From NCBI GenBank assembly GCA_020160975.1, contig JAIUPJ010000001.1, positions 840,001 through 872,000 of the forward strand: a DNA stretch of 32,000 nucleotides, written 5' to 3'. The stretch's first letter is position 1; each line of letters starts with the position of its first letter. The stretch comes from Candidatus Saccharimonadota bacterium (GTDB taxonomy: Bacteria; Patescibacteriota; Saccharimonadia; Saccharimonadales; Saccharimonadaceae). Shown piece after piece: positions 10,635 through 32,000 of this stretch. Below the pieces are notes generated by a model. The model ran no database searches. It worked only from the letters and a program-made list of their open reading frames with translations, and was not told the DNA's origin. Position numbers and translations under genes: made by a program.

Positions 10635-11185
10635 TCTGGCGCTCCTATTTTTCCATGAATAAACTTGTAGCTACTGGCGGCCTCTTTTGAAAATGTACGC
10701 GTTGATACGACATTGAGTGTCGGCGCGTTCATCTCTGATATTGTCCAGTCGCCAGTTAGTTCGTTGACGCTAATAACGTATGCCACATGCCCCCAATCAC
10801 CGCTATCAGTCTGAAAGACAGCACCGACAGCAGGAGTATGATTTACAAGATAGCCGTCGGCCTCGGCGCGGTCGTCCCATGTGTTTGCGTTACCCCATGT
10901 GGTCGGTATCGGACTGCCAGCCCATTTACGCATAGCGTATGACCACCATGTACAGTTACCCCACGCATAAGTATTGTCTGGCATGGGTGCGCCCATATAA
11001 AAGCCGCGTGTTTCGGCAGATTTAGCGTCTGGCGTATTTGCCAGCCAGCTAAGAGTTGGCGTGCCAAGCGACATTATAGCCACAACTGGCAACGATATGA
11101 TGATAGTTACCACTATCAACACCAGCGCGAGTATGCGCTTTGGCTTAAAGCCGCCGACGCTAAACACTACAACCGCTGGATTCAC
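10583..11185 (-). CDS. Membrane-anchored CHAP-domain peptidoglycan hydrolase (T4SS-associated)
   Basis: An N-terminal TM segment is followed by the catalytic Cys context GNCTWWSYAMRKW and His context WGHVAYV. Confidence 0.8.
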   Translation of the reverse strand: MNPAVVVFSVGGFKPKRILALVLIVVTIIISLPVVAIMSLGTPTLSWLANTPDAKSAETRGFYMGAPMPDNTYAWGNCTWWSYAMRKWAGSPIPTTWGNANTWDDRAEADGYLVNHTPAVGAVFQTDSGDWGHVAYVISVNELTGDWTISEMNAPTLNVVSTRTFSKEAASSYKFIHGKIGAPEWTPTPLLPIPPYNSGL

Positions 11186-12963
11186 GAGGCGTACAACTCC
11201 GCAGGGTTAGTCGTGATGAGTGGGTGTTCTTTGTCGCTGGCAACAACTTTTACTGCTACGTGGTTTTGGTCGGCGATCAGTAGCGCGTCGCCGCGTTCAC
11301 ACGTTAGCAAAAAGCTCTGTTCGTATTCGCTTAGATTAAACTCGCTTACCACACCCTTGATAGTTGTAGTATCTTGGCGCATGAGAATACGTAAAGCCGA
11401 CTGCGACGCAATAGCACGGCCATAGTCGCTTTTCAGAAAGTCGCGTGCTTGTTGCGAGATGATTGACACGCCGAGATAGTATTTTCGGGCGCGGCGTACC
11501 AATCCAGCGACAAAGCGTGCCGATTCTTCGTGTTCAAGCAGTAGCCAGCCCTCGTCAATGATGAGTAACCGTTTTTCTGGCTTGGCCATGACCTGATTTT
11601 TTACAAAGTTTGAGATAATCAACATCATTATTTTGCGTAGGCTCTCTGGCAAGTCTTTGATGTCAAAAACAACTAGCCGATTATCGAGCTTGATATTTGT
11701 TTGTGAGTTAAACACTTCGGCAAGCGAGCCAGAGATATATCGTTCTAGCCGTTCGCATAGTTTCATCTGGCCGAGGTCTTTGAGTTCAACATACAAGTCT
11801 TCGAGGAGTGGTTGTTGTTTCTTGGCTTTTTTGTAGATTTTGAGTATGGCTTTATCGACTGCCGCTTTTTCGCGCGAGTTTAGCCCCTCTGCCATAAGGC
11901 CAATGACTTCTGTAAGGTCTTGGGTATGCTCCGACAGGTCGCTAATTTTGTGAAATGTCGTTGCAAGGTCAAAGGGGTTTATCTTTTGCTTGCTCTTGGC
12001 CGATACTTTGATGTATGTACCGCCGACAGATTTTGTCAGTCGCTCATATTCACGTTCTGGGTCAATGACGATAACTTTTGTGCCTTGCATAAGCTGGCGT
12101 AGTATCTCGACTTTGGTTGTGTAGCTTTTACCAGCGCCAGAGCTTGCAAACGTGATTGAGTTTGCATTGTGCAAGCTAAAGCGATCAAGAATAACCAGCG
12201 AGTTATTTGATTTGTTTACGCCATACAATATGCCAGTTTCTTGCACTAGCTCGGACGACATAAACGGAAAAGTAAGCGCCGCGCTGGAACTGTCGAGGTT
12301 GCGTTTTTGTGCCAGTTGGTCTTCGCCGCGAGGTAGGATTGACTGCAAAGCCTCAAGTTGTTGGTAGCGTGCCACTTTGGAGTAAAACAGCCGTGCCGAC
12401 ATAGTAGCCTCAAGCAGTTTTGTGATTTTGTTTAGCTCCTCTAAAGTTTCGGCGCGAATACTGACATAGATTGCCATTTGAAACAGTTTTTCTTGGCCAC
12501 GCTGGATTTTATCGCGTAGCTCGATAGCCGATTCTAAGGGGTCGGTAATTTCAGAACCGACAATTTTACCAGCCCTCATCATAGCCCTCTTGGTACTCTC
12601 TAGCTCGGTAATTTTGCGGTGCAGTTTTGGTAAGGCTGACATGGCGCTGACTTCGTGTACGTGATAGCTTATGTCGGTATCGTGGTTAAAGTTAATCAGA
12701 CTATCAAGCCAGCCAGAGTTTGCCACAAATGGGTAGCCAGAGATGTACAAGGTACGCATGTACACGCCGTCGATACACAAATGGTCGATATTTTCTTCTA
12801 GCCCAGAGTATGACAATACGTCGATAGCGTCTTGTTCGCCAAACGTGATATTGAGTTCTTGTTGTCGCTCTATACGCGCCTGTCGTCGCTTGCGAGCAGG
12901 GGCGGCGATTGGCTCTATGAGTTTACGCCTTACGTTTTCGAGCTTTTTTAGCTGTGTTTTCAT
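11182..12963 (-). CDS. virB4: VirB4-family T4SS ATPase, C-terminal ATPase portion
   Basis: Walker A FASSGAGKSYTTK, Walker B RLLIIDEGWLLL, and ISQQARDF. At 593 aa it lacks the usual N-terminal domain. Confidence 0.88.
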   Translation of the reverse strand: MKTQLKKLENVRRKLIEPIAAPARKRRQARIERQQELNITFGEQDAIDVLSYSGLEENIDHLCIDGVYMRTLYISGYPFVANSGWLDSLINFNHDTDISYHVHEVSAMSALPKLHRKITELESTKRAMMRAGKIVGSEITDPLESAIELRDKIQRGQEKLFQMAIYVSIRAETLEELNKITKLLEATMSARLFYSKVARYQQLEALQSILPRGEDQLAQKRNLDSSSAALTFPFMSSELVQETGILYGVNKSNNSLVILDRFSLHNANSITFASSGAGKSYTTKVEILRQLMQGTKVIVIDPEREYERLTKSVGGTYIKVSAKSKQKINPFDLATTFHKISDLSEHTQDLTEVIGLMAEGLNSREKAAVDKAILKIYKKAKKQQPLLEDLYVELKDLGQMKLCERLERYISGSLAEVFNSQTNIKLDNRLVVFDIKDLPESLRKIMMLIISNFVKNQVMAKPEKRLLIIDEGWLLLEHEESARFVAGLVRRARKYYLGVSIISQQARDFLKSDYGRAIASQSALRILMRQDTTTIKGVVSEFNLSEYEQSFLLTCERGDALLIADQNHVAVKVVASDKEHPLITTNPAELYAS

Positions 12964-13600
12964 CTGCTGTTCCTTTCTGCTCGCTCTTGACGAGGGCGGT
13001 ATGAATTATCTGCAAAGCCTGTTCGGTGAGTGGCTGTATTTTGGCTTGCGTCGGACTGTAAAAGCTATAAAACAGGTCTAGCACTTCGAGGCTGTCGAGT
13101 TGATCGGCGTGCATACCGAGCCGCCCCATACCTTTGTTGATAATGTCGAGCTTGATTTTTATTTGCTCCGAGATGAGGTCAAAATCTGCCTTGCCAGATT
13201 GTCGGTACGGCACGACGATATAGAAATGACGCGTTAAAATCTTGTTGTTGCTAATGAGCGAGCGTATAAACTCGTCGTAGTTTTGTAGCTGCGTGCGGTA
13301 GATCGGCACAGTTTCACTATCTAGCCGTTCGCGTAGGTCTTCGAGGTATTTGTCCATATCTATCTCGCGCGTCCGTATCAGGATTTGCAAGCTCGTACCG
13401 ACAGAGTTTAGAAAACTCTCGTAGGTTTCAATGATAGCGTCTTGTTCTTCTTCGCTGCGTAGTTCAAAGTTAAGCGACGATACTTGCAAGATTGCGCGGT
13501 ACTCATTGTTTGGCAACATCAAGATACCGTCGCGCACGCCACGTATGGCAATTTGATGACGCGAGCTAGTTTTACTTTTCGATTTCTGTAAGGCGAACAT
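12923..13600 (-). CDS. VirB4 N-terminal domain encoded as a separate ORF
   Basis: Start ATG 13600 follows AAAGGAAA. IRGVRDGILMLPNNEYRAILQVSSLNFELRSEEEQDAIIETYESFLN matches the N-terminal region of Gram-positive VirB4/TrsE/Orf16-type proteins. It overlaps the ATPase ORF by 41 nt in a different frame. Confidence 0.65.
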   Translation of the reverse strand: MFALQKSKSKTSSRHQIAIRGVRDGILMLPNNEYRAILQVSSLNFELRSEEEQDAIIETYESFLNSVGTSLQILIRTREIDMDKYLEDLRERLDSETVPIYRTQLQNYDEFIRSLISNNKILTRHFYIVVPYRQSGKADFDLISEQIKIKLDIINKGMGRLGMHADQLDSLEVLDLFYSFYSPTQAKIQPLTEQALQIIHTALVKSEQKGTADENTAKKARKRKA

Positions 13601-14078
13601 GCAGATTTCCTTTCTTTCCAGTTTCAAAACGGACTTTTGCCGCAGGGTTTTCTATGGTGGCAAGAACTCTGGCGGTAGCTGGTATGTCGAGCTGTGGTCG
13701 GGCGGTGTGTCTTTGCGTTTTTGTGGTGGTGGCCTTTTCTGGTTCTTCTTTTTTAGTTGGGTAGGTTTCGCGTAGGCTCTCGGTGTTTTTGTTGTAGAGA
13801 TAGTATTTTGGTCGCAAATTGTAGCGTAGGATTGTTACCAGCCAAAAGGCCAATATCTTGCCCTTGATACGAATAGCCAAAACACCAAAGAACATAAAGA
13901 CAGCGCCGATGATAACGTACTTATAGATCGCGCTACCCATGAACGGCGGCACAAGGGCAAAAACACCAGCACTGACAAAAATCGGTATCACGAGCAGGAG
14001 TATTTGCGAAAAGCCAAGACTACCGATGATACGGTCTTCAACAGTTGTAACTTGTGCTGGTACGACGGTCATTTTCAT
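13572..14078 (-). CDS. PrgI/VirB3-like small T4SS membrane protein
   Basis: VPAQVTTVEDRIIGSLGFSQILLL is followed by two TM helices, in the position between the VirB6-like and VirB4 genes. Confidence 0.55.
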   Translation of the reverse strand: MKMTVVPAQVTTVEDRIIGSLGFSQILLLVIPIFVSAGVFALVPPFMGSAIYKYVIIGAVFMFFGVLAIRIKGKILAFWLVTILRYNLRPKYYLYNKNTESLRETYPTKKEEPEKATTTKTQRHTARPQLDIPATARVLATIENPAAKVRFETGKKGNLHVRLTEIEK

Positions 14079-15520
14079 GCGGCTTTGTCCTCGTCGCTAC
14101 TCTTGCGCGTTACCTTTGGCCTCGGTGCGCTTTTTGGTATCGCGGTATGTGTAATCTCGGCCGTGCCTTTCTTGTTTTCAAAACTGACACTTTGTATCTT
14201 GCCAGTCCGAACGGCCTTTGATTCAACGCCCCTCATCATGCGCGTCTTCTTTGCGGTATCAGTCTTTGAGCTGATAGCACTTGAGGCAGCGCGGCCTTTG
14301 CCAGTCATGTAACTTACACCGTTTATAAACTGGCTGCCGAGTTTTTTGATGTTGCGCGACCCCATACTGACATAGCTAAATTGCATCATCGTACCTTGTG
14401 CCCTGAGCAGCATAAGTACCGTTGCGATACCTGTTACCATAGCCATGAGCGTATCGGGCATAGCATTGTCGCCAGAGGCCGTCGCCATACCAGCAAACAG
14501 CGAGGCGGCAAGCTGGAGTATCACGACATGCACGAACAATACAAAGATTGTCGTAATGTAGGTCTTAAATGCAGTTTCGGCAAAATCACGAAAGCCCGGA
14601 ATTAGCCAGACGAGCGCAACCAGCGGCGATAGCACCGCGCCAATATACAGCGTTACTAGACGCATGACGTAGTACACCACCAGCACAATCGAGCAAATCA
14701 CAAAGGCCAGCATGATAAACAGCGCCGCAATACCGAGGCCTGACGTTTCCTCGACAACTTTCATCAGCGTTTCCCAGACGGACGTAGTACCAGACACGAG
14801 GCCAACGGCTTTAATGAGCGCGTTCGATAGCGCGATAATGCCGTCAATCAAGAATATCGACGTATTCATTAGCACGAATATCAGCGCCAGCCGAGGTAGC
14901 AAGTGCTTAAACTCTATCTCATCAAATCCAAACGTGGACGCACTCATAACATGAAAACCAATCAGCACCACGACCAGAATAAACAGCACATCGGCAATAC
15001 CCACCATAGCCAGCCAGAAGTTGAAGACGCTTTGATTGCTTGCCATAGTCGGCGTTGCTTTGGTGAAGAAGTCAAGCGCCGAGAGGAACGGCGTAGCCAC
15101 TCCGTTGATAACTTTGACGAGCAAGCCAGTGATCGCCTTGATTATCATGTCAAGCAAACCGTTGCTGTCGTCCTTTGATTCTATGGCCTCAAGACTTGGC
15201 ATAGTAGCGCTGCTTGGGTCATGTGGCGTACCGTAAGAGTTCGTTAGAATTGTCGTGAGGGTTACGGCGGCCAGCACAATCACAAGGCCTAGCACCGCCT
15301 TTTTTAGCACCTCTTTGGCATGTTCCATTTGCTCTGGCTTGCCGCTGCTTGTGATGTAGAGGTAGCCAGCGTTTGCGATAAAAAACACACAGGCCACACT
15401 TGCAAGACCAGCCAGCAGTTGCACCACTGGCATGACATATTCGCGCATGGCCGTGATAGCCGATGAAGTGTCGCCAAAGATTGTTAGCCCTGACAGTAGG
15501 GCGTTCTCAAGACCCCACAT
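14075..15520 (-). CDS. VirB6/TrbL-like polytopic T4SS membrane protein with an N-terminal pilin-like module
   Basis: 481 aa with many hydrophobic helices. Its N-terminus is paralogous to the upstream pilin-like protein (GYLYITSSGKPEQMEHAKEVL vs GFTYITSSGNPEQLDKAKRTL). Confidence 0.65.
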   Translation of the reverse strand: MWGLENALLSGLTIFGDTSSAITAMREYVMPVVQLLAGLASVACVFFIANAGYLYITSSGKPEQMEHAKEVLKKAVLGLVIVLAAVTLTTILTNSYGTPHDPSSATMPSLEAIESKDDSNGLLDMIIKAITGLLVKVINGVATPFLSALDFFTKATPTMASNQSVFNFWLAMVGIADVLFILVVVLIGFHVMSASTFGFDEIEFKHLLPRLALIFVLMNTSIFLIDGIIALSNALIKAVGLVSGTTSVWETLMKVVEETSGLGIAALFIMLAFVICSIVLVVYYVMRLVTLYIGAVLSPLVALVWLIPGFRDFAETAFKTYITTIFVLFVHVVILQLAASLFAGMATASGDNAMPDTLMAMVTGIATVLMLLRAQGTMMQFSYVSMGSRNIKKLGSQFINGVSYMTGKGRAASSAISSKTDTAKKTRMMRGVESKAVRTGKIQSVSFENKKGTAEITHTAIPKSAPRPKVTRKSSDEDKAA

Positions 15521-15529
15521 AGCTTATAC

Positions 15530-15871
15530 CTAGCCCCCGAACGCCTGTTTTGCCAGAGTTGTTACGATGTTTGCCAGCACAAACGCCGCGATGACGATAG
15601 CGAGGCCGATAGCCGACCATGTGAGCGTGCGTTTTGCTTTGTCTAGCTGTTCAGGATTGCCCGAACTCGTGATGTAGGTAAACCCACCAGCAACAAAAAA
15701 GCCAGTCGCAACCAGACCAGCCAAACCTGCAAGCACCGTGATGACGTTGCGTATAAAGTTTTCGACGTTGCTAACGCCCCCAGGCGTTTGCGCCAACGCT
15801 GGCTCTGCCAGCACAAAAGGCAAACCAGCCGCAACGACCAGCGCCACAATAGATAATGTTTTTAACCTCAT
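15530..15871 (-). CDS. VirB2/TrbC-type pilin-like protein
   Basis: Start ATG 15871 follows GAGGGG. It has a signal peptide ending in ALAQ and two hydrophobic helices flanking the TSSGNPEQ motif. Confidence 0.6.
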   Translation of the reverse strand: MRLKTLSIVALVVAAGLPFVLAEPALAQTPGGVSNVENFIRNVITVLAGLAGLVATGFFVAGGFTYITSSGNPEQLDKAKRTLTWSAIGLAIVIAAFVLANIVTTLAKQAFGG

Positions 15872-16190
15872 ACAGTGTTCCCCTCGTTTCATTGTTTTAC
15901 AAGGTTCCCACCAACCATTAGCATTTTGTGTAAGAATAAAACGGTCGCCTCTTGGCGACGCCTGTTACTCCCACTTACTACAAACTATTCACGACACCGA
16001 AACAATTTACAAGAACCGAAAAATAGTATACTTGCAACACTTTATGTCAGTAAGTATACAAAAGTATTGTTCGTTTTTCAGAGGTGAAACGCGCGGCAAA
16101 TGGCAAGTATAAGTTTTTTGCAAAAATCTTTAGAAAATATAGGGCTTGCAACTTCGTTTTACAGGTGTAGCGCGGTGATATAATGGCAGT

Positions 16191-19807: not shown

Positions 19808-20608
19808 TTACAAGCCTATACGTGCTGGCTCTTGCTCCTCGTCTATTTTCTGCCATAGCTTGCTAGTAGTGGTGGCTTTTTGTAGCTGCTCCTGTGTAAT
19901 GGTAGCAAAGGCTATATCTTCTGTATCGTCGAGGGCGTAGCGTATCTGCTTATTGAGTTTCTTTTGGGTTGGTTCGTCTTGGCAAATGCAAAGAATTGTC
20001 GGCAGATCGCCAGCGTCTTCTGGCCAGTCGCCGTCTGCTGCGTAGTTGATATAGTTGCGGACTTTGCGAACGCCGACGAAGAACGGTTTTGTATCGTCGA
20101 GTACATCAAGGAAGTAGCGGCGGCGGTTTGCGCCAGCTTTTAAGTTGAGGAATAGGTCGGGTGTCCACGACGGGAAGTAGTCATAGGCGGCCATATGGCT
20201 TTTGGTAAATATGCCGAGCTTGTCGCTATATATGGCTTGTAATGTGAGGACGGTATCGGCCACGTTTAGACAATGCGTAATAAAGTCGGGCGATACGGTT
20301 TTGTTTTTGTAGAGGGCTTTTATAGCCCACTCGTTTGTATTATCTGCTGGTAATTGTCGTGCGCCTTTTGGTGTCAAAAAGTATTCTGCTGGTCGCCCTG
20401 CGAGCTTGTATGACTTGTCGTAATGCTTACCAATAAAGCCGCGTTCTTCGAGTATTTGTAGCTTGTTTTGTGTAGTCTTCTGGTTCGGTTTAAGTAAGTG
20501 TTTAGCTATTTGTTTACTACTACTGAAACGTACTTTATACAGCCAGTCTAATACTGCTACTTGTTCGGGGTTTAAGGGTCTTCTATACTTTGGTTCTGCT
20601 GCTGTCAT
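19808..20608 (-). CDS. Replication-relaxation (Replic_Relax)-family protein
   Basis: 266 aa. The N-terminal winged-helix-like LNPEQVAVLDWLYKVRFSSSKQIAKHL pattern is typical of this plasmid/ICE family. Assigned from memory of the family, not a search. Confidence 0.5.
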   Translation of the reverse strand: MTAAEPKYRRPLNPEQVAVLDWLYKVRFSSSKQIAKHLLKPNQKTTQNKLQILEERGFIGKHYDKSYKLAGRPAEYFLTPKGARQLPADNTNEWAIKALYKNKTVSPDFITHCLNVADTVLTLQAIYSDKLGIFTKSHMAAYDYFPSWTPDLFLNLKAGANRRRYFLDVLDDTKPFFVGVRKVRNYINYAADGDWPEDAGDLPTILCICQDEPTQKKLNKQIRYALDDTEDIAFATITQEQLQKATTTSKLWQKIDEEQEPARIGL

Positions 20609-20681
20609 ACGTCAATCACTTTCTTCTTTATATTTATATATAAAAAGAGAGGAAAAGAAAAGAGGAAAAAACAGATAAAAT

Positions 20682-21721
20682 GGGTAATTATAGGTTGGGT
20701 ATCGGTAACTAAGTTTTAAGAACGCTTGTTAGTAAGGCTTTTGTACATCAGGCGCTTGCCGTTGATGTTATCAAACCAAGCCTCAAAACGCTCGCCGTCA
20801 GTCATGCCGCGTGTGTTCCAACGGAACGTGTACTCGTCGCAGTAGAGCTGCAAATGCTTTGCGCTTACGTGGTGGTAAATGCCGTCAATACCGCGCTTTA
20901 GGTGCGACCAAAAACTTTCTGCTGTGTTCGTACTAGCCATGCCGTTTACAAACTCTTTTGCGCCGTGATTAACGCTTGCGTGCTTGAAACCGATTTTAGG
21001 TAGGGTGCGATACGGCATGTGTTCGTCTGTGTAGATCGTAGCGTCAATGTCGATGTTCTTACGAGCTAGGGTCATAAGCGTGTTGCTGCCTGTGTCTTTA
21101 GTTGCGACTGCACGGAGCTTGCCGCCACGTTCAACCATACCGACAACTGGCGTTTTGCTATTCTTGCTGCCGTGTCCTTGAGCGCCTTTACCAGTTAGTT
21201 GCTTTAGTCGTTTGTGATAGTGCTTGTTGCTGTCCTTGCCGCCTATATACGCCTCGTCCATTTCAACCTCGCCAGTTAGCTTTTCAAAGCTGCCAGTTTC
21301 AAATACGTGGCGTATGCGCTGGAGCATAAACCATGCAGTTGCTTGACGTACCTTTATGAACTTAGAGAGCTGGATTGAAGATACGCCCTTTTTGATACTT
21401 GTACATAGATAGATTGCTAGTAGCCATTTACGCAGAGGTATTTTGCTGTCTTCAAAGATACTGCCGACACGGACGGTGAATTGCTGCCGACATGAGGCAC
21501 ATTTGAATAGCTTGCCAGCGTTTTTACCGCTCGTGTACTTATACGCCTTGCCGATAACGCCACATTGAGGGCAAGTTATCTCGTCTGGCCAACGACGCTC
21601 TTGTATGAAATCCCGACAAGACTGCTCGTCAGGGAATCTGTCTAGTAGTTCGATGAGGTTCATATCTTCCATACTTCCATTGTACACCTCTGTTGTGGGT
21701 GTGTCAAGCGTATAATTGCCT
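20682..21721. mobile_element. IS1595-family insertion sequence (ISXO2-like), approximate ends
   Basis: Imperfect terminal inverted repeats: GGGTAATTATAGGTTGGG (left) vs the reverse complement AGGCAATTATACGCTTGA (right). AAAAT flanks both ends (20677-20681 and 22-26 after 21700, i.e. 21722-21726). A single transposase gene lies inside. Confidence 0.5.
20716..21672 (-). CDS. IS1595-family transposase
   Basis: Start MEDMNLIELLDRFPDEQSCRDF. It has an N-terminal zinc ribbon (CPQCG...CASCRQQFT) and an ISXO2-like DDE region (EVEMDEAYIGGK...YTDEH...NTAESFWSHLKR). Confidence 0.88.
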   Translation of the reverse strand: MEDMNLIELLDRFPDEQSCRDFIQERRWPDEITCPQCGVIGKAYKYTSGKNAGKLFKCASCRQQFTVRVGSIFEDSKIPLRKWLLAIYLCTSIKKGVSSIQLSKFIKVRQATAWFMLQRIRHVFETGSFEKLTGEVEMDEAYIGGKDSNKHYHKRLKQLTGKGAQGHGSKNSKTPVVGMVERGGKLRAVATKDTGSNTLMTLARKNIDIDATIYTDEHMPYRTLPKIGFKHASVNHGAKEFVNGMASTNTAESFWSHLKRGIDGIYHHVSAKHLQLYCDEYTFRWNTRGMTDGERFEAWFDNINGKRLMYKSLTNKRS

Positions 21722-21968
21722 AAAATTATTACACACCTTATATAATGCGGCGGCCATTCGAGCGGGCCGTCCCCGACCCGACCCGCCGGGCCAATCACAT
21801 TCTTGCTCAAAATCGGTACGACTTAGTTGTATAAATCCACCATGCGATCATTCTTAGACGCACCGGCATCTTTTTTTGATTGGCTTGCACGTTGATGAAA
21901 GTGCTTATTTGTGGGGTGTAAACATAGTTTCTGGGTCGAGATAAACCCCAGAAGGAAATAGAACCTGT

Positions 21969-22725
21969 TTGCACTCGAGTCTATCCTGTAGTGACAGATT
22001 GAGAAATATGAGCGAAGAAGAGCAAAGAGGCGTTGCGCTAGCGGGGTTCTTTGCGGAACTATCCATAACTCCGACAACCTCAGCTATAGTTTTTGATGAC
22101 CCAGTTACATCATTGGACCACCTCAATGTGGAATGGATCCTAAGCGTGTTGCTCTCGAGGCGCTAACCAGGCAGGTAATTGTTTTTACGCATAATGCACT
22201 ATTTGCAAGTGAGCTTGAAAGGGCTATTGATGAGCTTAGCGGAAAATATACAGTTAGATCAATTGAAAAATCTGCAAGCCCTGGTGTCGTGCGCGAAAGC
22301 CTTCCCTTTGACACTATGAAAACTGGTCAACGAATTGATTTTCTTGAAAAGCGCACACCTCCAGTTAAGCTAAGTTTGAATATAATGAAGATGATTACAA
22401 GTCCGAAACAGAAAGTTTTTACAAGGATTGAAGGAGAACCTGGGAAAGAGCTATAGAGGAAGTTCTATTGAACGGGATCGCAATTCGCTATCGCAGAGCT
22501 GTAAAACCAGGCAATGTTAATGACATATTTATCAATGATACCGACAAACAGCTAATAGCCGATAATATGCATACCTGCTCAAAGTATATGCACGATCCTG
22601 CGGATGAAACGGGCGGTACTGAAACGCCTAAGCCAGATAATATGAAAGATGATTTACAGATTATAAAAGATTGGGTTACTGATATTAAGCAGCGAGTTAA
22701 GGCGGCAAAAACTGCAAAGTCTTAG
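21969..22725 (+). pseudogene. 3' remnant of an AAA_13-type (PrrC/RloA-like ABC-fold) ATPase gene, frameshifted and 5'-truncated
   Basis: Three consecutive ORFs lie in different frames. MSEEEQRGVALAGFFAEL (signature-like), IVFDDPVTSLDH (Walker B/D-loop) and RQVIVFTHNALF are present. No Walker A part remains, and the IS sits immediately upstream. Confidence 0.6.
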
Positions 22726-22750
22726 GGCTTATTTTGCTATGATATAAGAT

Positions 22751-23314
22751 ATGAAAACAGCAATTACTCTTCACGGCACATTTGGTTCGCCACACGGGAA
22801 CTGGTTTCAGTGGCTAAAGAATGAGCTTGAAGAAAAAGGTTTCGCTGTGTGGTTGCCACAATTGCCCCACGCCGAACAACCCAGTCTTAGAAAATGGCAA
22901 CTATTTGTAAAAGAAAAATGTCCATTTCCTATCAACGAACAGACACTTATTGTCGGACATTCTAGCGGCGCAATACTAGCGCTAGTATTAGCAGAGAATA
23001 ATATGGAAAAGATTGGAGCAATAGTTGATGTGTCGGTCTTCCACGATAACTCATTGCAGTGGCAACCAAATGACAAACTCTTTGATGTTCAATTTAACTG
23101 GACCGCTATCCGGGAGGGTGTGAAAGAGCTGCTATTTATTCATTCGGACAATGACCCTTATGTGCCGCTTAATCAAGCACAGTTCGTATCAACAAATACA
23201 GGTGCTGAGATGATAGTTGTTCCCGGCGAAGGTCATTTCAACTTAGAACGAAGCGATGAGTATAAGCAATTCCATAAACTACTAGAGATATTAGAGGATA
23301 GAAAGCTGGTTTAA
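22751..23314 (+). CDS. RBBP9/YdeN-family alpha/beta serine hydrolase
   Basis: 187 aa with LHGTFGSPHGNWF, the nucleophile elbow GHSSG, and SDNDPYVP...GHF. Confidence 0.75.
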   Translation: MKTAITLHGTFGSPHGNWFQWLKNELEEKGFAVWLPQLPHAEQPSLRKWQLFVKEKCPFPINEQTLIVGHSSGAILALVLAENNMEKIGAIVDVSVFHDNSLQWQPNDKLFDVQFNWTAIREGVKELLFIHSDNDPYVPLNQAQFVSTNTGAEMIVVPGEGHFNLERSDEYKQFHKLLEILEDRKLV

Positions 23315-23315
23315 A

Positions 23316-23642
23316 ATGAGTACCTACAAGATTGTTGTAACTGTTCCCGAAAATGAAGCCGATAAACTTCGCGAGGCTATTGGTAATGTCGGAGGCGGTA
23401 AAGTCGGCAATTACTCTCATTGCAGCTTTTCAGTAAAAGGCACTGGACGATTTTTGCCCGTTGATGGTGCTAATCCTGCTATTGGGCAGGTTGGTCAGCT
23501 TGAAGAAGTCGCAGAAGAGCAGATTGAAATTACCTGTGATAGCGAAAGTGTTAAAGCAGTTTTAGTTGCAATTCGTGAAGCACATTCGTACGAAGAGCCT
23601 GCTATAGATGTGTACGAATTAGCGGAATTATCTGATGTCTGA
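23316..23642 (+). CDS. PII-like small protein (COG3323 / NIF3-insert-like domain)
   Basis: KIVVTVPENEADKLREAIGNVGGGKVGNYSHCSF...GRFLPVDGANPAIGQVG...AHSYEEPAIDVYEL matches this family as I remember it. Confidence 0.6.
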   Translation: MSTYKIVVTVPENEADKLREAIGNVGGGKVGNYSHCSFSVKGTGRFLPVDGANPAIGQVGQLEEVAEEQIEITCDSESVKAVLVAIREAHSYEEPAIDVYELAELSDV

Positions 23643-24591
23643 ACTTCAAACACCAGCGGACCGACTAAATTACACAGGTGACCTTACGCCAGTCATTGAG
23701 CGTGTCTGTGAAACTTATGGCGTTGGTCAGTTGAGCGCAAGTAGTATCGTTGAAGTCGGTTATGAGGATTGTAATGTCGTCATAGAAACCGACCAAGCAA
23801 AGTTTGTCGCCAAGATGTTTGCTAAGACACGAACACCAGTAGACATTACTCGCTATGCCACCACAATGGAGAAGGTCGTACAGGCGGGGGTACATCACCC
23901 AGAACTATTAACAACTGATACTGGCGAAACGACATATAGCGATAGTGGCGTTACGCTCGTTTTAATGCGATTTGTTGAAGGTAAGAGTTTCTTGGAGCTA
24001 GACCGCTCCCCGTCAGACGAAGAGCGTAAAGCCGTACTGGAACAGGCAGCTACGGTAAACAGTATTGATTATGAACCACCCTATCTATTTGATAGCTGGG
24101 CTATTCCAAACATTCACGCGATGCTTGAAAAGGTAGAGCAGTATATTGCGCCAGAAGACCTACCATTAGTTGAGCAAGCGATTGCAGGCTATGATGCTAT
24201 CCCTACAGACGACCTGCCACACTGTTTTGTACACGGCGACTTCACCAAAGCTAATGTCATTAAAGGCGAAGATGGCAAAATATATATTCTAGACTTTTCG
24301 GTTGCTAATCGTTATCCACGGATACAAGAGCTGGCAGTAATTGTTGCCAACCTACTGCACGATGACGGCGAAGAAACGCTAGAGCAGAAATGCAAGCGAG
24401 TAGCAGATGAATACAGTGAATTTAATCCATTGAATGACCAGGAGCGCAAGCATCTACCTGCCTACGCACTGGCTGGCATAGCTATGGAATTTATGGGCGC
24501 ACATCAAGAGAAGTATATAAACGGCAACGACACAGAGGAGACCGACTATTGGCTCAGCCTGGGGCGTGAGGGCTTGCGCAAGGCTCAGTAG
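23635..24591 (+). CDS. APH-family phosphotransferase (aminoglycoside/homoserine-kinase-II-like)
   Basis: Catalytic loop CFVHGDFTKANVI and metal-binding YILDFS are present. The start overlaps the upstream stop (ATGTCTGA). Confidence 0.75.
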   Translation: MSELQTPADRLNYTGDLTPVIERVCETYGVGQLSASSIVEVGYEDCNVVIETDQAKFVAKMFAKTRTPVDITRYATTMEKVVQAGVHHPELLTTDTGETTYSDSGVTLVLMRFVEGKSFLELDRSPSDEERKAVLEQAATVNSIDYEPPYLFDSWAIPNIHAMLEKVEQYIAPEDLPLVEQAIAGYDAIPTDDLPHCFVHGDFTKANVIKGEDGKIYILDFSVANRYPRIQELAVIVANLLHDDGEETLEQKCKRVADEYSEFNPLNDQERKHLPAYALAGIAMEFMGAHQEKYINGNDTEETDYWLSLGREGLRKAQ

Positions 24592-26250
24592 ATAACAAGC
24601 TCCCTGCTTTTAAGTGAAGCTGGGATGCGCGGTGCGCTTGATAGACTACCGTCAACCAACGCTCCAAAAAGTTTAAGTAAATTCTGTAGCTCCGCACCAA
24701 TTCGGAACTGAAACGGAAATTGTCGCCCTCTGGGGCGATTTTTTCGCTTGCGGCGCGTAGCGCCTGCCAGCGGTTTTTCAGGGGGGAGGTTAGAAATTGG
24801 TCGTCATTTATGACGACTTCTTTTTGTCGCATTTTGAGGTTCGACCCGAAGATTTCGAGTAATAGCGACTTTTTGGCTCGTAAATCATCACTCTTGGCGA
24901 CTTTACAGATAGAAACGGCAGTTTCTATCCATGTTTTCATCGGTTCGACCCAGGTCGAAACGCCCAGCGTTGCCTGCTCGATTTGTTCATGCAAAAGTTT
25001 CTTTTTGCCCAATATCTCCGCTCGTTTGTCTTGGTATAGTTCACGCTCTACGTCGCCGTCTAAGTAGCCGTCGAGTAGACGCGCCAGCTTGTCGGACAAC
25101 TGCGCGATAGCTTCTTTATCGTTTCCAGTAATACACTCAAAGTCGGCTTTTTCACTCATCTCGTCGTTACGTATCAGCTCGCGCAGTTTGTCCGCCCATG
25201 CCGTAGGCATGGCATACTTCTGTAATAATGCAGATAGTTGTTTGTCCAGCTCCTCAGCTCTGATGTGCGGCTCTCGACAGACAACCGTCTTACTCTTGCG
25301 AGTGCAGCGGTAATACACATAAGTATGTATGTTGCCGTTCTTTTGCCGCTTTACATGCTTTTCTGCGGTATACATCATGCCGCATGAACAATACACCAAG
25401 CCGCATAGCGGCATTGGGTCATTTGTTTTTGGGTGCGGCTTACCACGCCGCTCTAAAACAACTTGCACTTGGTCAAATAAGCGCTTCGAGATAATGCCTT
25501 TATGCTTGCCCTCATGGACTTCGCCAAGATAGCAAAAATGCCCATAATAAAAGGGATTAGCCAGCATGCGTTTGATACGATTTTTATGATATGGCTTTTT
25601 ACCTGTCGTCTTTTTGCCGTTTACTTTGCCGCTGCGCGTTTGTATGCCTTTGGCATGTAGGAAATCAGCGATCTCATCGAGTCGTTGATCGCCTTTGGCA
25701 TATAACTCAAAAACTTCGCGCACAATTGGGGCAGTTTTCTTGTCTACTTTGGCTGTTTTGGTGCGCAGATCGTTATAATAACCGACTGGCGCAACGCCTG
25801 GCATTTCGCCACGCCGCACTTTCTGCCGTAGTCCACGCTTAGTGTTTACCGACAAATTATCGACATACTGTTTAGATGAATTAAACTCATTTGCCAACAT
25901 ATACTTGCCTTGTGGTGTATTTTCAAACCAAAAATGTGGGAACTTCAAATCAAGCAATACATGCTAATCGAGCATGTAAATAATCTGTCCACTATCTATA
26001 CTATTGCGCGAGAGTCTGTCGGGTAGCCATGCCAGTATTCCGTTTGCCTCACCAGTCGCAATATCAGCCAGCATCTTGTTGAACTTTTTGCGCCCTGGCT
26101 TTTTCGCCGTTTGTTTTTCTACAATTATGCCCGCGATACGCAAGCCCGTACGCCCGGAAAACTCCTTTAGCTCAATTATCTGCGCCGCCACAGATAATAT
26201 TTGCTTGTCCTCTACATCGGTGGCTCGTATATCCTCGGTGATGCTATACT
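24554..26250 (-). pseudogene. Decayed large serine recombinase (paralog of 517-2076)
   Basis: It is colinear with recombinase 1 along its length. There is an in-frame TAG where recombinase 1 has Gln (YMLD*HVLLDLKFP vs YLLDQTHLANLKFP, about 25961-25963). The catalytic YTRKST is replaced by ITEDIRAT, and there is no start codon. Confidence 0.85.
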
Positions 26251-28286: not shown

Positions 28287-29606
28287 GTGTATATGTTTAA
28301 GTCGTATATCCAGAAAAAACTTGAAACAAGAGTCCGACAATACTTTGCGAAGCACCCAGAAGTAAGACTGATAGTAGTGGCTGGGAGTGTCGGCAAGACC
28401 AGCACCAAACGCGCCTTGGGTGATTTGCTGGTGCAGCGCTATAGAGTTCGCATGAACGATGGCAATCTCAATACCGAACTTGGCGTCCCCGTGGCAATAC
28501 TTGGTATCGACTATCCATCGAATCCGCGCAGTATTATGGCGTGGTGGCAAGTGCTGCGAGCGGCAAAATCCCGCGTCAAGAGCCCGACCGATTGCGATGT
28601 GATTATCCAAGAGCTCGGCACTGACCATCCGGGCGATATTGCAAGTTTTGCTCGCTATCTAGCGCCAGACCTCGCGCTTGTTACGGCAGTTACGCCAGAG
28701 CATATGGAGTTTTTTGGGACTATCGAAGCGGTAGCGCAAGAAGAACTATCGGTGGCAGGGTATAGCAAGTTTGTGCTGATCAACCGCGACGATGTTGAGG
28801 GGCGGTTCTCGGAGTTTGCTACCAACCCAAACTTCAGTACCTATGGCACGAGCGGAGCAGCCGAACATCGATTTGAGCAACAGAATTTTGATATCGACAA
28901 AGGCTATCGAGGCAAAATTATTGCGCCGGAATATCCCGAGGCATTTGATGCCACAATTCGCGTGGTTGGCGAGCACAGCCTGAGGCCGATTATTGGTGCA
29001 GTTGCTGCAGCAGCAACAATGGGTCTAACGCCTGCCGAAATTGTAGCAGGGCTGGCACTGGTGCGGCCGGTACCGGGACGCATGAATATCCTAAAAGGCA
29101 TTGGTGGTACGACAATTATCGACGACAGCTACAACTCTAGTCCGGCAGCCGTGGCAGGCGCGCTACAGGCGCTGTACTCGTTTGATTCCGAGGACGTCCC
29201 GCAGCGCATCGCCGTGCTAGGTGATATGCGTGAGCTCGGCGCCACAAGCCAGGTAGAGCACGAAAAGGTGGGTAATCTTTGTGACCCAAATCTTTTGTCG
29301 TGGGTAGTCATGGTTGGGCCTGATATGGAGAAATACGCCGCACCCATCGCTCGGCAACGTGGTTGCCAGGTGTATATCGCCCGGTACGCCATCGAGGCAG
29401 GTGAGTTTGTCCGATCGGTTTCCGAGCCAGGTTCAGTGATTCTTGTCAAAGGCTCGCAAAATACGATTTTTCTCGAAGAGTGCGTCAAAGTACTGTGCGA
29501 CATATCGGAGGATCACGAGTTGGTTCGCCAATCGCCAGAATGGCTTGCCACAAAGGACAAGTATTTTGCGCAGTTTCAGGCCACCATTTCACCACAAGAG
29601 GTATAG
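28287..29606 (+). CDS. murF: UDP-N-acetylmuramoyl-tripeptide--D-alanyl-D-alanine ligase
   Basis: It has the Mur-ligase P-loop VAGSVGKTSTKRAL and the MurF-typical IIDDSYNSSP. The true start may be ATG 28293 rather than GTG 28287. Confidence 0.85.
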   Translation: MYMFKSYIQKKLETRVRQYFAKHPEVRLIVVAGSVGKTSTKRALGDLLVQRYRVRMNDGNLNTELGVPVAILGIDYPSNPRSIMAWWQVLRAAKSRVKSPTDCDVIIQELGTDHPGDIASFARYLAPDLALVTAVTPEHMEFFGTIEAVAQEELSVAGYSKFVLINRDDVEGRFSEFATNPNFSTYGTSGAAEHRFEQQNFDIDKGYRGKIIAPEYPEAFDATIRVVGEHSLRPIIGAVAAAATMGLTPAEIVAGLALVRPVPGRMNILKGIGGTTIIDDSYNSSPAAVAGALQALYSFDSEDVPQRIAVLGDMRELGATSQVEHEKVGNLCDPNLLSWVVMVGPDMEKYAAPIARQRGCQVYIARYAIEAGEFVRSVSEPGSVILVKGSQNTIFLEECVKVLCDISEDHELVRQSPEWLATKDKYFAQFQATISPQEV

Positions 29607-29646: not shown

Positions 29647-32000
29647 ATGAAACGATATAATCCATCTGAAATCGAGCCGAAATGGCAGCAAATCTGGGAC
29701 AACGAGCAGGTCTACAGGGCTGACCTCATGTCGGACAAGCAAAAATACATCGCCATGAGTATGTTCAACTACCCGAGCGGAGCTGGGATTCATATTGGCC
29801 ATGCGATGAATTACACCATCTCTGATGTGATGGCGCGCTACAAGCGCCAAAACGGCTATGAGAGCTACCACCCTGTTGGCTGGGATGCTTTTGGACTGCC
29901 AGCAGAAAACTTTGCTATCAAAAGTGGCGTCTCGCCACAGGCAAGCATGGCCAAAATTATTCCAAGCTACCACAAACAGTACAAAGCCATGGGCTGGAGT
30001 AACGATTGGAGCAAGGAAGTTTCGACGCACTTGCCGATCTATTACAAATGGACACAGTGGATTTTCTCAGAGATGTACCGTGCAGGACTTGCCTACCAAG
30101 AACCACGCATGCAATGGTGGTGCACCAAGTGCCAAACGGTGCTCGCGAATGAGCAAGTAATCGACGGTAAATGTTGGCGCCACGACGCTCCTGATGACCC
30201 GGAAGTCGCCAAAAAAGAAGTCAAACAGTGGTTTTTCAAAGTGACAGAATATGCCGATGAGATGCTCGAAGCCACCGATGCGCTCGACTGGAGCGAGGTA
30301 GTAAAGGCTGCCCAGAAGAACTGGATAGGCAAGAGTGAGGGTGCGGAGGTACAGTTTGAAGTTCTGAGCTCTACTTTCTTAGAGAAAAAGGAGTCTAAAG
30401 ATTCGCTGAAGTTTACCCCAGAGCTGACCAAAATGATCATCGACGGTAGCAAGACGTCCACTATTCGTCTTGAGCCAAAAAATGTAAACGTCGGGGACAC
30501 AGTGGAGCTACTGACGCGCGATGGGGAAAGCGTTGACGCATTTGGATATGCGAAAATTACAAATATTCGCGCCATGAAGCTTGTTGATATTCCTAATGAC
30601 CTGGCAGGTCACGAGCCGCTTAAAGATGATGCAGATAAACTGGCGCGATACCGTGGATATTATACGGACAACGTAACGCTTGAGACTGAATTTACCATTT
30701 ACGACTTTGATAACTTAGAACTCAGATCTCAGAACGTAGAGCTCGATCCCATCACTGTCTTTACCACTCGTCCCGATACCATTTTTGGCGCGACGTTTTT
30801 GGTGCTGGCGCCGGAGCACGAGTTGGTCAAACAAATTGTGACAGATGATGCGCGTGATGTCGTAGAGCAATATGTCAAGGATTCACTGAAAAAGTCAGAA
30901 CTCGAGCGTCAAGAGACTAAAGAAAAGACCGGTGTGCCGACAGGCGCGCATGCCATCAATCCCGCAACGGGCGAGAAAATCCCTATCTGGGTGGCTGACT
31001 ATGTATTGGGTGGCTATGGCACTGGGGCTATCATGGCGGTGCCGGCACACGACGAGCGAGACCGGGAATTTGCGGAGAAGTTTGATTTGCCAGTAGTGCA
31101 AGTTGTGGCCGAAACGCTGCTTGATCAAGAAAATCCGCCTCGTGACGACAAGAAAAATACTCGGCGCAACGTAGCGATGTGCATTATCGACCATCCAACC
31201 GATGGGACGTTTTTGACGCTCAAATGGCATAAGCAACCATGGCATAATTTCGTGATGGGTGGCATCGAAGAAGGCGAGTCGCTCGAGGCCGCCGCGCGCC
31301 GAGAAATCACCGAAGAAACCGGCTATGTCGACATGTCGTTTGTCGAAAGTATGCCAGTCCCCCTCAATAGTAAGTTTTACGCAGCGCATAAAGACGTCAA
31401 CCGCGACATTATCACGCATGTCGTCCGGTTCAAACTCAATAGTCTCGATACGGTTGCGACTGCACGCGAGGAGCATGAGGATTTCGAGCCAATGTGGGTA
31501 GAGAAGTCAGCACTTTCTCAGTTGCAACCAGTCGCCGAGCTCGGGCATATTCTTCGTTGGCTCGACGGTGAAACACCGATTTATCATGGAGAAGGCGTAC
31601 TGGTAAATTCCGGCAAATTCGATGGTATGAGTAGTAGCGAGGCGCGCGAACAGATCGTGGCGTGGCTCGAGCAGCAAGGTGTCGGCAAAGCCAAAATAAC
31701 GTATAAAATCCGAGACTGGAGTGTCAGCCGCCAGCGCTATTGGGGCGCGCCGATTCCGGTCGTTCACTGCGACAAGGATGGTATCGTACTGGTGCCCGAT
31801 GACCTATTGCCAGTGATTTTGCCGGAGCTCGAAGATTTTGCCCCGAGCGGTGATGGTCGCAGCGCCCTGGCGCGCGCGACAGAGTGGCTCAACACGACCT
31901 GCCCAACATGTGGTGGCCCGTCAACCCGCGAGACCGATACGCTCGACACCTACATTTGTAGTAGTTGGTATTTCCTCAGGTATTTCGATGGTGCCAATGA
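29647..32000 (+). CDS. leuS: Leucyl-tRNA synthetase, N-terminal 784 codons (continues beyond the window), with two inserted domains
   Basis: This ORF is not in the ORF track because it has no stop in the window. I translated 29647-32000 codon by codon and found no stop. Motifs seen: YPSGAGIHIGHAMNY (HIGH), GWDAFGLPAEN, TTRPDTIFGATF, AVPAHDERDREFA, RDWSVSRQRYWGAPIP. Confidence 0.92.
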   Translation, partial: MKRYNPSEIEPKWQQIWDNEQVYRADLMSDKQKYIAMSMFNYPSGAGIHIGHAMNYTISDVMARYKRQNGYESYHPVGWDAFGLPAENFAIKSGVSPQASMAKIIPSYHKQYKAMGWSNDWSKEVSTHLPIYYKWTQWIFSEMYRAGLAYQEPRMQWWCTKCQTVLANEQVIDGKCWRHDAPDDPEVAKKEVKQWFFKVTEYADEMLEATDALDWSEVVKAAQKNWIGKSEGAEVQFEVLSSTFLEKKESKDSLKFTPELTKMIIDGSKTSTIRLEPKNVNVGDTVELLTRDGESVDAFGYAKITNIRAMKLVDIPNDLAGHEPLKDDADKLARYRGYYTDNVTLETEFTIYDFDNLELRSQNVELDPITVFTTRPDTIFGATFLVLAPEHELVKQIVTDDARDVVEQYVKDSLKKSELERQETKEKTGVPTGAHAINPATGEKIPIWVADYVLGGYGTGAIMAVPAHDERDREFAEKFDLPVVQVVAETLLDQENPPRDDKKNTRRNVAMCIIDHPTDGTFLTLKWHKQPWHNFVMGGIEEGESLEAAARREITEETGYVDMSFVESMPVPLNSKFYAAHKDVNRDIITHVVRFKLNSLDTVATAREEHEDFEPMWVEKSALSQLQPVAELGHILRWLDGETPIYHGEGVLVNSGKFDGMSSSEAREQIVAWLEQQGVGKAKITYKIRDWSVSRQRYWGAPIPVVHCDKDGIVLVPDDLLPVILPELEDFAPSGDGRSALARATEWLNTTCPTCGGPSTRETDTLDTYICSSWYFLRYFDGAN

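Follow-up and report, generated by a model that had tools for sequence, protein, structure and literature searches.

A leucyl-tRNA synthetase gene carrying two inserted domains

We analysed a stretch of 32,000 nucleotides (the window) from a Candidatus Saccharimonadota bacterium (assembly GCA_020160975.1, contig JAIUPJ010000001.1, positions 840,001 to 872,000 of the forward strand), which ends within leuS, a gene that encodes a leucyl-tRNA synthetase (LeuRS) with a Nudix hydrolase domain inside its CP1 editing domain. The open reading frame (ORF) scored 643.7 bits against TIGR00396 (leuS_bact), despite being cut by the window end, and because this exceeds the equivalog cutoff of 548.4 bits the product was identified as a bacterial LeuRS. 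A Pfam search detected two foreign domains within the protein, ASCH and NUDIX, and broke the match to CP1 (PF13603) into three stretches. An earlier note on this DNA had proposed this arrangement, i.e., a bona fide LeuRS bearing an ASCH insert and, further along, a Nudix domain with an intact Nudix box; the TIGR00396, ASCH and PF00293 scores, all above threshold, and the fit of the box agree with it. The features of the gene are listed below, with residue numbers of the window protein; P0132 (811 residues) is the closest insert-free Saccharibacteria LeuRS.

29647..32000, forward strand: leuS, 5' 784 codons; open frame from the ATG at 29647, stop-free to the window end
30373..30741, forward strand: insert site 1, ASCH cassette, residues 243-365, at the CP1 entry; missing from P0132
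30745..31122, forward strand: CP1 editing domain, N-terminal part; PF13603 over residues 367-492 (model positions 21-145 of 185), aligned with T. thermophilus LeuRS 243-363
31123..31566, forward strand: insert site 2, Nudix cassette, residues 493-640 (148 residues); missing from P0132, takes the place of T. thermophilus residues 364-376
31168..31560, forward strand: Pfam NUDIX envelope, residues 508-638; PF00293, E=1.5e-13, model positions 4-133 of 134
31258..31326, forward strand: Nudix box GGIEEGESLEAAARREITEETGY, residues 538-560 (E544, R552, E553, E556, E557), read directly
31375..31404, forward strand: family motif FYAAHKDVNR, residues 577-586; invariant in alignments A2 and A3, its Lys nearly invariant in A1
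31567..31704 (end approximate), forward strand: CP1 editing domain, C-terminal part, after the Nudix cassette; aligned with T. thermophilus LeuRS from residue 377

The HIGH motif (residue 49) is intact, and so are the editing-site motifs of CP1, TTRPDT (residue 373; 30763-30780) and AHDERD (residue 467; 31045-31062). With these motifs in place, both the synthetase and its editing site appear to be functional. The loop equivalent to KMSKS lies past the window end; it reads MFSKSKGN in P0079, a near-identical full-length protein of 1080 residues that differs from the window protein at 10 of 784 residues.

The Nudix cassette is nested in the CP1 editing domain

The extra block found by comparison with P0132 spans 148 residues (493-640). 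The earlier note had estimated about 150 residues and placed them at 31105-31600; these coordinates enclose the block, and both of the flanking peptides it quoted are present. The flanks align with residues 243-363 and 377-482 of the T. thermophilus LeuRS, about 157 residues standing in place of a 13-residue loop, and with residues 253-371 and 391-489 of the N. gonorrhoeae enzyme, in which the gap is 19 residues. The cassette starts about 20 residues downstream of AVPAHDERD, at position ~145/146 of the 185-position profile hidden Markov model (HMM) of the editing domain. By alignment, it occupies a surface loop of CP1 just past the AVPAHDxRD editing motif, whose Asp (the equivalent of T. thermophilus D347) binds the amino group of the amino acid to be edited. 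CP1 is itself an editing hydrolase inserted in the Rossmann fold and, since it already interrupts that fold, the Nudix cassette is an insert within an insert. This nesting contradicts the generalisation of a 2026 survey of domain insertions, in which the LeuRS editing domain is an insertion-exclusive module with zero host events (PMC13114784).

The G+C content of the Nudix insert, overall and at third codon positions (GC3), is 51.6% and 55.9%, as compared to 52.4% and 59.8% for the remaining leuS. We found no mobile-element footprint: the insert lacks flanking repeats, whether direct or inverted, and the region matched no family in Rfam (an intron, for instance).

The LeuRS-Nudix architecture is widespread in Patescibacteria

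A word-indexed protein search with the insert alone missed all the LeuRS fusions, even the 99%-identical P0079, and returned free Nudix proteins of about 160 residues only. The one-off fusion that this result hinted at is a sensitivity artefact, as shown by searches with the whole protein and with the junctions; insert-only searches of this type under-report domain insertions. When a 301-residue query spanning the junctions was run with HMMER, exhaustively, against 1.84 billion representatives, more than 100 of the best 150 50%-identity clusters matched it as a single contiguous stretch. The survey of LeuRS across Patescibacteria that the earlier note had called for thus finds a Nudix domain at the same site in most of the best-matching clusters. 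When one genome per species was scanned with the Nudix-only alignment (A2), about 44 of the best 53 loci were LeuRS-embedded Nudix domains; by record title, these include Saccharibacteria, Parcubacteria/Paceibacterota, Taylorbacteria, Nomurabacteria, Berkelbacteria and Moraniibacteriota. The proteins recovered with the whole-protein query fell into size classes of ~960 residues (Nudix only), ~1070-1090 (Nudix and ASCH), ~920 (ASCH only) and ~811 (neither).

The source is probably a metagenome-assembled genome, and we considered whether the fusion of a Nudix gene to leuS could be an artefact, arising either from chimeric assembly or as a decaying pseudogene. No stop codon interrupts the frame, and the GC and GC3 of the insert are like those of the remaining leuS. 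The 90% cluster of P0079 holds 29 near-identical members from NCBI, JGI, ENA and Logan, on contigs of up to 972,972 bp, under the names 'class I tRNA ligase family protein' or 'leucyl-tRNA synthetase' of Saccharibacteria or Patescibacteria. That the same architecture recurs in independent assemblies, over a hundred divergent clusters and some 44 species genomes excludes a chimera, a concern raised in the earlier note, and leaves an artefact of any kind hardly credible.

We extracted 126 inserts from site 2. A strict Nudix box was present in 98 and a near-canonical one in 8; 16 form a subclade with an altered box, and 4 are non-Nudix or aberrant. LeuRS whose cores are merely 37-47% identical to that of the window protein still hold a canonical box. 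Such conservation of the catalytic motif over a large family makes it likely that the cassette is catalytically active, in line with the competence that had been suggested for it. In the altered subclade the box typically reads GGIExGQTPEEAAx[M/A]EIxEEA: the EE pair is kept, the Glu of GX5E is replaced by Gln (Lys in P0265) and the Arg mostly by Met or Ala, with one each of Thr, Val and Gln. Activity may be altered or lost in these proteins (P0126, P0138, P0158, P0168, P0174, P0180, P0185, P0188, P0192, P0195, P0197, P0198, P0230, P0248, P0265 and P0279). In P0111 and P0133 (1087-1092 residues), the same CP1 loop holds an insert of 141 residues that is not a Nudix domain and matched no Pfam family.

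Motif, predicted fold and nearest families of the Nudix domain

The match to PF00293 (gathering score 21.1) scored 51.4 bits in the context of the whole protein, and 56.2 bits (E=4.8e-15) when the Pfam model was run on the excised insert, a check that the earlier note had suggested. The box, GGIEEGESLEAAARREITEETGY, matches GX5EX7REUXEEXGU at all the defined positions, although the final U is a Tyr and not Ile, Leu or Val. AlphaFold2 (AF2) predicts a Nudix fold for the insert, whether it is modelled alone (predicted local distance difference test, pLDDT, 86.3; predicted TM-score, pTM, 0.80) or inside the full-length protein (pLDDT 91.1, pTM 0.76), where the Nudix region and its junctions have a pLDDT of 90-97 per 10-residue block. 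A Foldseek search against the PDB returned 545 matches at E<=0.001, and the best 50 of the 545 are all Nudix enzymes. The best match is an uncharacterised MutT/nudix protein of E. faecalis (2azw), followed by many entries of E. coli RppH, including the Ap4A (diadenosine tetraphosphate)-bound 7sp3, with TM-scores of 0.65-0.68 and 18-23% identity.

Family models gave a similar picture. The best NCBIfam model was RppH, with 34.0 bits, well short of its equivalog cutoff of 118; the NudC and ADP-ribose pyrophosphatase models scored below it. The best sequence match of the insert in the PDB is the lupin Ap4A hydrolase 1f3y (E=2.8e-4), and a profile of the family had its best PDB match in AvrM14 (8DP8/8DP9, E=2.4e-6), with NUDT5, CT771 (a structure with bound Ap4A hydrolysis products) and 1f3y also among the top matches, at E values of 1e-6 to 1e-5. 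A conserved acidic residue (E121/E122, alignment numbering) is kept ahead of an invariant C-terminal Trp. Diadenosine polyphosphate (ApnA) hydrolases reportedly conserve a Tyr some 16-18 residues past the Nudix box, a rule ascribed to Dunn et al. in 1999. Tyr578 sits 18 residues past the box, in a column that is Tyr or Phe family-wide; 1f3y and CT771 were matched weakly, with E values from 3e-5 to 3e-4. Thus, the Nudix domain belongs to no characterised subfamily and leans towards the side of RppH, the ApnA hydrolases and decapping enzymes.

Nudix cassettes are exchanged between LeuRS backbones

We compared LeuRS cores in an alignment of 94 LeuRS from which both inserts had been removed (810 core columns). 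All four insert states were found among LeuRS that are 80-83% core-identical to the window protein, and core identity was uncorrelated with Nudix identity (Spearman -0.16). The cores of P0081 and P0114 are 94% identical, with 38-40 of 40 identical residues in the flanking 40-residue windows, whereas the Nudix blocks match at 4/40 and 6/28; P0084 and P0085 (92% core identity) have a like pattern of matching flanks and divergent Nudix blocks. Of P0103 and P0121 (89% core identity), one has a Nudix domain and the other does not, and the pairs P0087/P0132 (98%) and P0098/P0186 (95% core identity) differ by the presence of ASCH. The proteins compared each come from several contigs and sources. That near-identical backbones differ in Nudix type or in the presence of an insert indicates an exchange of cassettes between LeuRS; judging from these pairs, the modules are swapped, acquired and lost within short evolutionary times, and the boundaries of the exchanged segments are sharp.

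Other Patescibacterial LeuRS carry an alpha/beta serine hydrolase (PF06821; P0104, L025 and L046), a HAD phosphatase (L030) or a Ham1/ITPase (L050 and P0232). By phmmer searches specific to each domain in 270 LeuRS, a biased sample, 206 of the proteins had a Nudix module, 40 an ASCH, ~25 an alpha/beta-hydrolase, 4 a HAD and 3 a Ham1 module, and every module found is a small hydrolase or has a hydrolase-like fold. Because the LeuRS, tolerant of insertions, also hosts Ham1, HAD and alpha/beta-hydrolase modules, the modules can be regarded as interchangeable accessory enzymes. The most heavily decorated LeuRS seen is a protein of 1735 residues from a Candidatus Taylorbacteria metagenome-assembled genome (L030:3205-8409, PLXZ01000004.1), in which two canonical Nudix domains, an alpha/beta-hydrolase and HAD_2 occupy separate insertion points. 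In L050:4681-8760 and in P0232 (1330 residues), a full Ham1p_like (ITPase) domain (E~1e-56) separates the catalytic core from the anticodon-binding domain, and CP1 carries a Nudix as well.

The same module families also occur as free genes. In the genome with the insert-free P0132, a Ham1 gene (L107:6527-7081) lies 3 kb upstream of leuS, and the window itself has a free Ser_hydrolase gene (PF06821; 22751-23314, forward strand; 187 residues) whose product shows full-length homology to the modules embedded in the LeuRS P0294, P0309, P0265 and P0104 (25-33% identity, E to 1e-22). This family is thus free in the genome of the window and embedded in LeuRS in others.

Free-standing relatives

The insert is most closely related to free Saccharibacteria Nudix proteins of about 160 residues (P0001-P0078, e.g., P0012, P0059 and P0035), with 40-46% identity over ~80-85% of the insert. 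They are named 'NUDIX hydrolase [Candidatus Saccharibacteria bacterium]' at NCBI and 'MutT (NUDIX family)' at JGI. The insert and its free relatives share an N-terminal R-x-D-K...T-x-R motif as well as FYAAHKDVNR. In three lineages (L001-L006, L105-L106) the free homolog lies in the gene order ygjV-like, Nudix, thrS, miaA; the Nudix-thrS-miaA order is absent for P0039, from a fourth lineage, and for the other free copies checked. We regard this synteny as a weak functional clue.

At the thrS-miaA loci, a Nudix-RNase H (RVT_3) fusion protein of 262-312 residues is encoded a few kb downstream, and in L001-L003 a free 101-residue ASCH/DUF3850 gene lies two genes upstream. At the locus of the insert-free P0132 (L107), a free Nudix gene of a different subfamily stands between nusB and rnc, 1.2 kb downstream of leuS. 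A derivation of the insert from this neighbour was ruled out, as the two belong to different subfamilies and only the box aligns; a derivation from an adjacent 101-residue gene was also ruled out, since that gene is not ASCH. Viral contigs gave just partial, generic Nudix matches and PADLOC a single weak, generic match (22.5 bits), so that neither a phage nor a defence origin of the insert was retained.

The ASCH cassette and the surroundings of leuS

The ASCH match (PF04266, residues 254-320) is marginal, with 23.0 bits against a gathering score of 21.2; the relative P0111 scored 28.3 bits. The ASCH block has a GC of 44.2% and a GC3 of 47.2%, below those of the remaining leuS, and its junctions have a pLDDT of 62-70 in the full-length AF2 model. 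A free ASCH gene near thrS was considered and rejected as a specific relative of the window ASCH insert, the match being limited to 34 residues at E=0.002.

A murF-like gene (28287-29606) directly precedes the leuS ATG at 29647, and the order HD-domain gene, murF, leuS is common to the window and the locus of P0132. ORFs in other frames or antisense to leuS (30895-31476 and 31507-31767 on the reverse strand, 31259-31501 on the forward strand) have no Pfam match and were set aside as spurious. A few kb upstream of murF-leuS, the window has a mobile-element-like region. It comprises a type IV secretion cluster (8040-15892, reverse strand, and 19808-25957) with a coupling-protein-like ATPase, a CHAP hydrolase, a VirB4/TraG-like ATPase, PrgI, VirB6/TrbL and TrbC pilins, followed by a relaxase, an IS1595 transposase, an APH-family kinase and a serine recombinase.

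A possible function for the embedded Nudix domain

The reading that we favour, to which we assign a probability of about 45%, is that the cassette is an autonomous, probably active Nudix pyrophosphohydrolase tethered to LeuRS, which is exchangeable and does the same job as its free relatives, and not leucine editing. The cassette belongs to a Patescibacteria-specific Nudix family that comes in two forms, one a free protein of about 160 residues and the other a cassette at one exact site of LeuRS, and the embedded form would act as an autonomous enzyme on LeuRS in the role of the free ones. The enzyme would most likely depend on Mg2+ and cleave a pyrophosphate bond of some nucleoside-5'-polyphosphate derivative, with dinucleoside polyphosphates such as Ap4A, or polyphosphorylated or capped RNA 5' ends, as the leading candidate substrates. 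Aminoacyl-tRNA synthetases make Ap3-5N, and the Nudix enzyme RppH/NudH degrades Ap4A and Np4A caps (PMC7705103, PMC10148737); because of this, Ap4A is a leading and still plausible candidate, at which we arrive from weak similarity and from context.

Several observations weigh against the favoured reading, in whole or in part. Likeness to the characterised Nudix subfamilies is weak throughout (PDB E values of 1e-4 to 1e-6, 18-25% identity), for which reason the substrate class is only a lean. Moreover, RppH and the plant ApnA hydrolases have a signature, Q-x-P-Q-GG, that leads into the box (MPQGG in 1f3y), and it is not found in the Nudix family described here, which has NFVMGG in the window protein and DFVMGG as the consensus. 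The 16 altered boxes among the 126 inserts suggest that catalysis may not always be under selection. The pLDDT above 90 at the junctions suggests a rigid docking of the domain and a possible functional coupling with CP1, and the fidelity of the cassette to one LeuRS loop across deep lineages is unexplained by autonomy alone.

One alternative, which we consider unlikely, is that the cassette serves in the house-cleaning of the nucleotide pool, removing damaged or non-canonical nucleoside triphosphates in the manner of MutT, and is carried on LeuRS merely for co-expression or genome economy. Such a role would suit the Ham1/ITPase and HAD modules co-inserted in other Patescibacterial LeuRS, which are classic house-cleaning families, the automatic MutT naming of the free homologs by JGI, and the variable presence of the insert between near-identical backbones. 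However, the insert scored far under the cutoffs of the MutT models (13.8 bits versus 97.9 for TIGR00586, 19.6 versus 148 for NF008044), its nearest characterised relatives are RppH, the ApnA hydrolases and AvrM14 rather than MutT, and strict fidelity to the site is left unexplained. The insertion within CP1 some 20 residues after the catalytic AHDxRD and the predicted rigidity of the junctions would be accommodated if the Nudix domain extends quality control, acting beside the CCA-binding editing pocket on a misactivated aminoacyl-adenylate or on modified ends of tRNA-Leu, such as a pyrophosphorylated 3'-CCA or a capped or triphosphorylated 5' end. That the modules found in LeuRS are all hydrolases, that the free homolog is in the Nudix-thrS-miaA order in three lineages and that the rapid turnover of the cassettes resembles conflict-driven systems would also fit. 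Nevertheless, we judge this to be rather unlikely. Insert-free LeuRS exist at 82% core identity and pairs 89-98% identical differ by an insert, which implies that the Nudix function is dispensable for LeuRS; aminoacyl-adenylates are not typical Nudix substrates; and the thrS synteny fails for P0039, while the PADLOC match is weak and generic. Since near-identical LeuRS lack the Nudix domain or bear a very different one, the domain does not seem to be part of leucine activation or editing, and we found no positive evidence for the participation in editing, or the special link to LeuRS chemistry, that the earlier note had entertained.

It also seems conceivable that the domain has a non-catalytic role, as in CFIm25/NUDT21, where a Nudix fold serves as a sensor or in a structural capacity. 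It would then be a ligand sensor or a structural or regulatory module that modulates LeuRS or mediates interactions, and the paired change in 16 of the 126 boxes, in which the first Glu becomes Gln and the Arg mostly Met or Ala, could be viewed in this light, together with the existence of catalytically dead Nudix proteins that bind Ap4A (PMC7705103). Yet the window box is fully canonical, about 80% of the inserts, including very distant ones, retain all the catalytic residues, and the additional conserved acidic residue E121/E122 is retained as well, all of which make a non-catalytic role improbable. Finally, CP1 of Patescibacterial LeuRS could be a docking platform for interchangeable hydrolase cassettes (several types of Nudix, ASCH, alpha/beta serine hydrolase, HAD and Ham1) that would extend editing past the proofreading of amino acids to the repair or detoxification of chemically modified tRNA-Leu or aminoacyl-tRNA, by using the grip of CP1 on the tRNA acceptor end. 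Possible targets would be a pyrophosphate added by a toxin to the 3'-CCA, N-acylated aminoacyl-tRNA or non-canonical caps, and the swapping between 92-98%-identical backbones would mirror an arms race with phage or host toxins. We regard this as a speculative proposal with little chance of being correct.

Comparison with known systems and significance

The insert can be compared with several known proteins. It has the Nudix fold and a canonical box in common with E. coli RppH/NudH (YgdP), lupin 1F3Y and Chlamydia CT771; RppH is its best characterised structural match, and RppH and the ApnA hydrolases its best family and sequence matches, with which it shares the acidic residue before the C-terminal Trp and the aromatic residue ~18 residues past the box. 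It differs from them in its low identity (18-23%), in having FVMGG in place of Q-x-P-Q-GG and in being embedded in LeuRS. The free Saccharibacteria Nudix proteins (P0012, P0059, P0035) are of the same phylum and have the same motifs, but are separate, uncharacterised genes for proteins of ~160 residues. AvrM14-A/B, which reportedly decaps mRNA, aligns over ~110 residues with the family profile, and its K-D-x-x-R-x-I-T-x-H resembles HKDVNRhIt; unlike the insert, it is a secreted eukaryotic effector of flax rust, and the low similarity has little bearing on the substrate. Among synthetases, NCBIfam NF040702 ('isoleucine--tRNA ligase, N-acetyltransferase domain-containing') likewise describes a class Ia enzyme with an extra catalytic module. 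Unlike in other aminoacyl-tRNA synthetases with accessory domains, here CP1 is the host, and the Nudix module is swapped as a cassette among near-identical alleles.

A full-text literature search found no paper that describes the LeuRS-Nudix architecture, in agreement with the earlier note, whose author knew of no such fusion. The sequences themselves are not new, as hundreds of Patescibacterial LeuRS of this kind are in public databases, some with the automatic annotation 'NUDIX domain-containing protein'. The described architecture is thus apparently new, although the proteins are already abundant under generic names, and those called 'NUDIX domain-containing protein' or 'class I tRNA ligase family protein' are mis-annotated.

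What was unexpected is the nesting inside CP1 and the exchange of cassettes across a phylum. CP1, which is viewed as a dedicated proofreading hydrolase, hosts a second, unrelated and probably active enzyme phylum-wide, and swappable cassettes in an essential gene are an unusual way for a core enzyme of translation to evolve. Should the domain degrade Ap4A-type compounds or caps, an alarmone or cap hydrolase would for the first time be physically coupled to an enzyme of the class that produces them; should it act on tRNA, the concept of editing would be enlarged. Even on a conservative reading, the LeuRS-Nudix proteins show how ultra-small genomes package housekeeping hydrolases.

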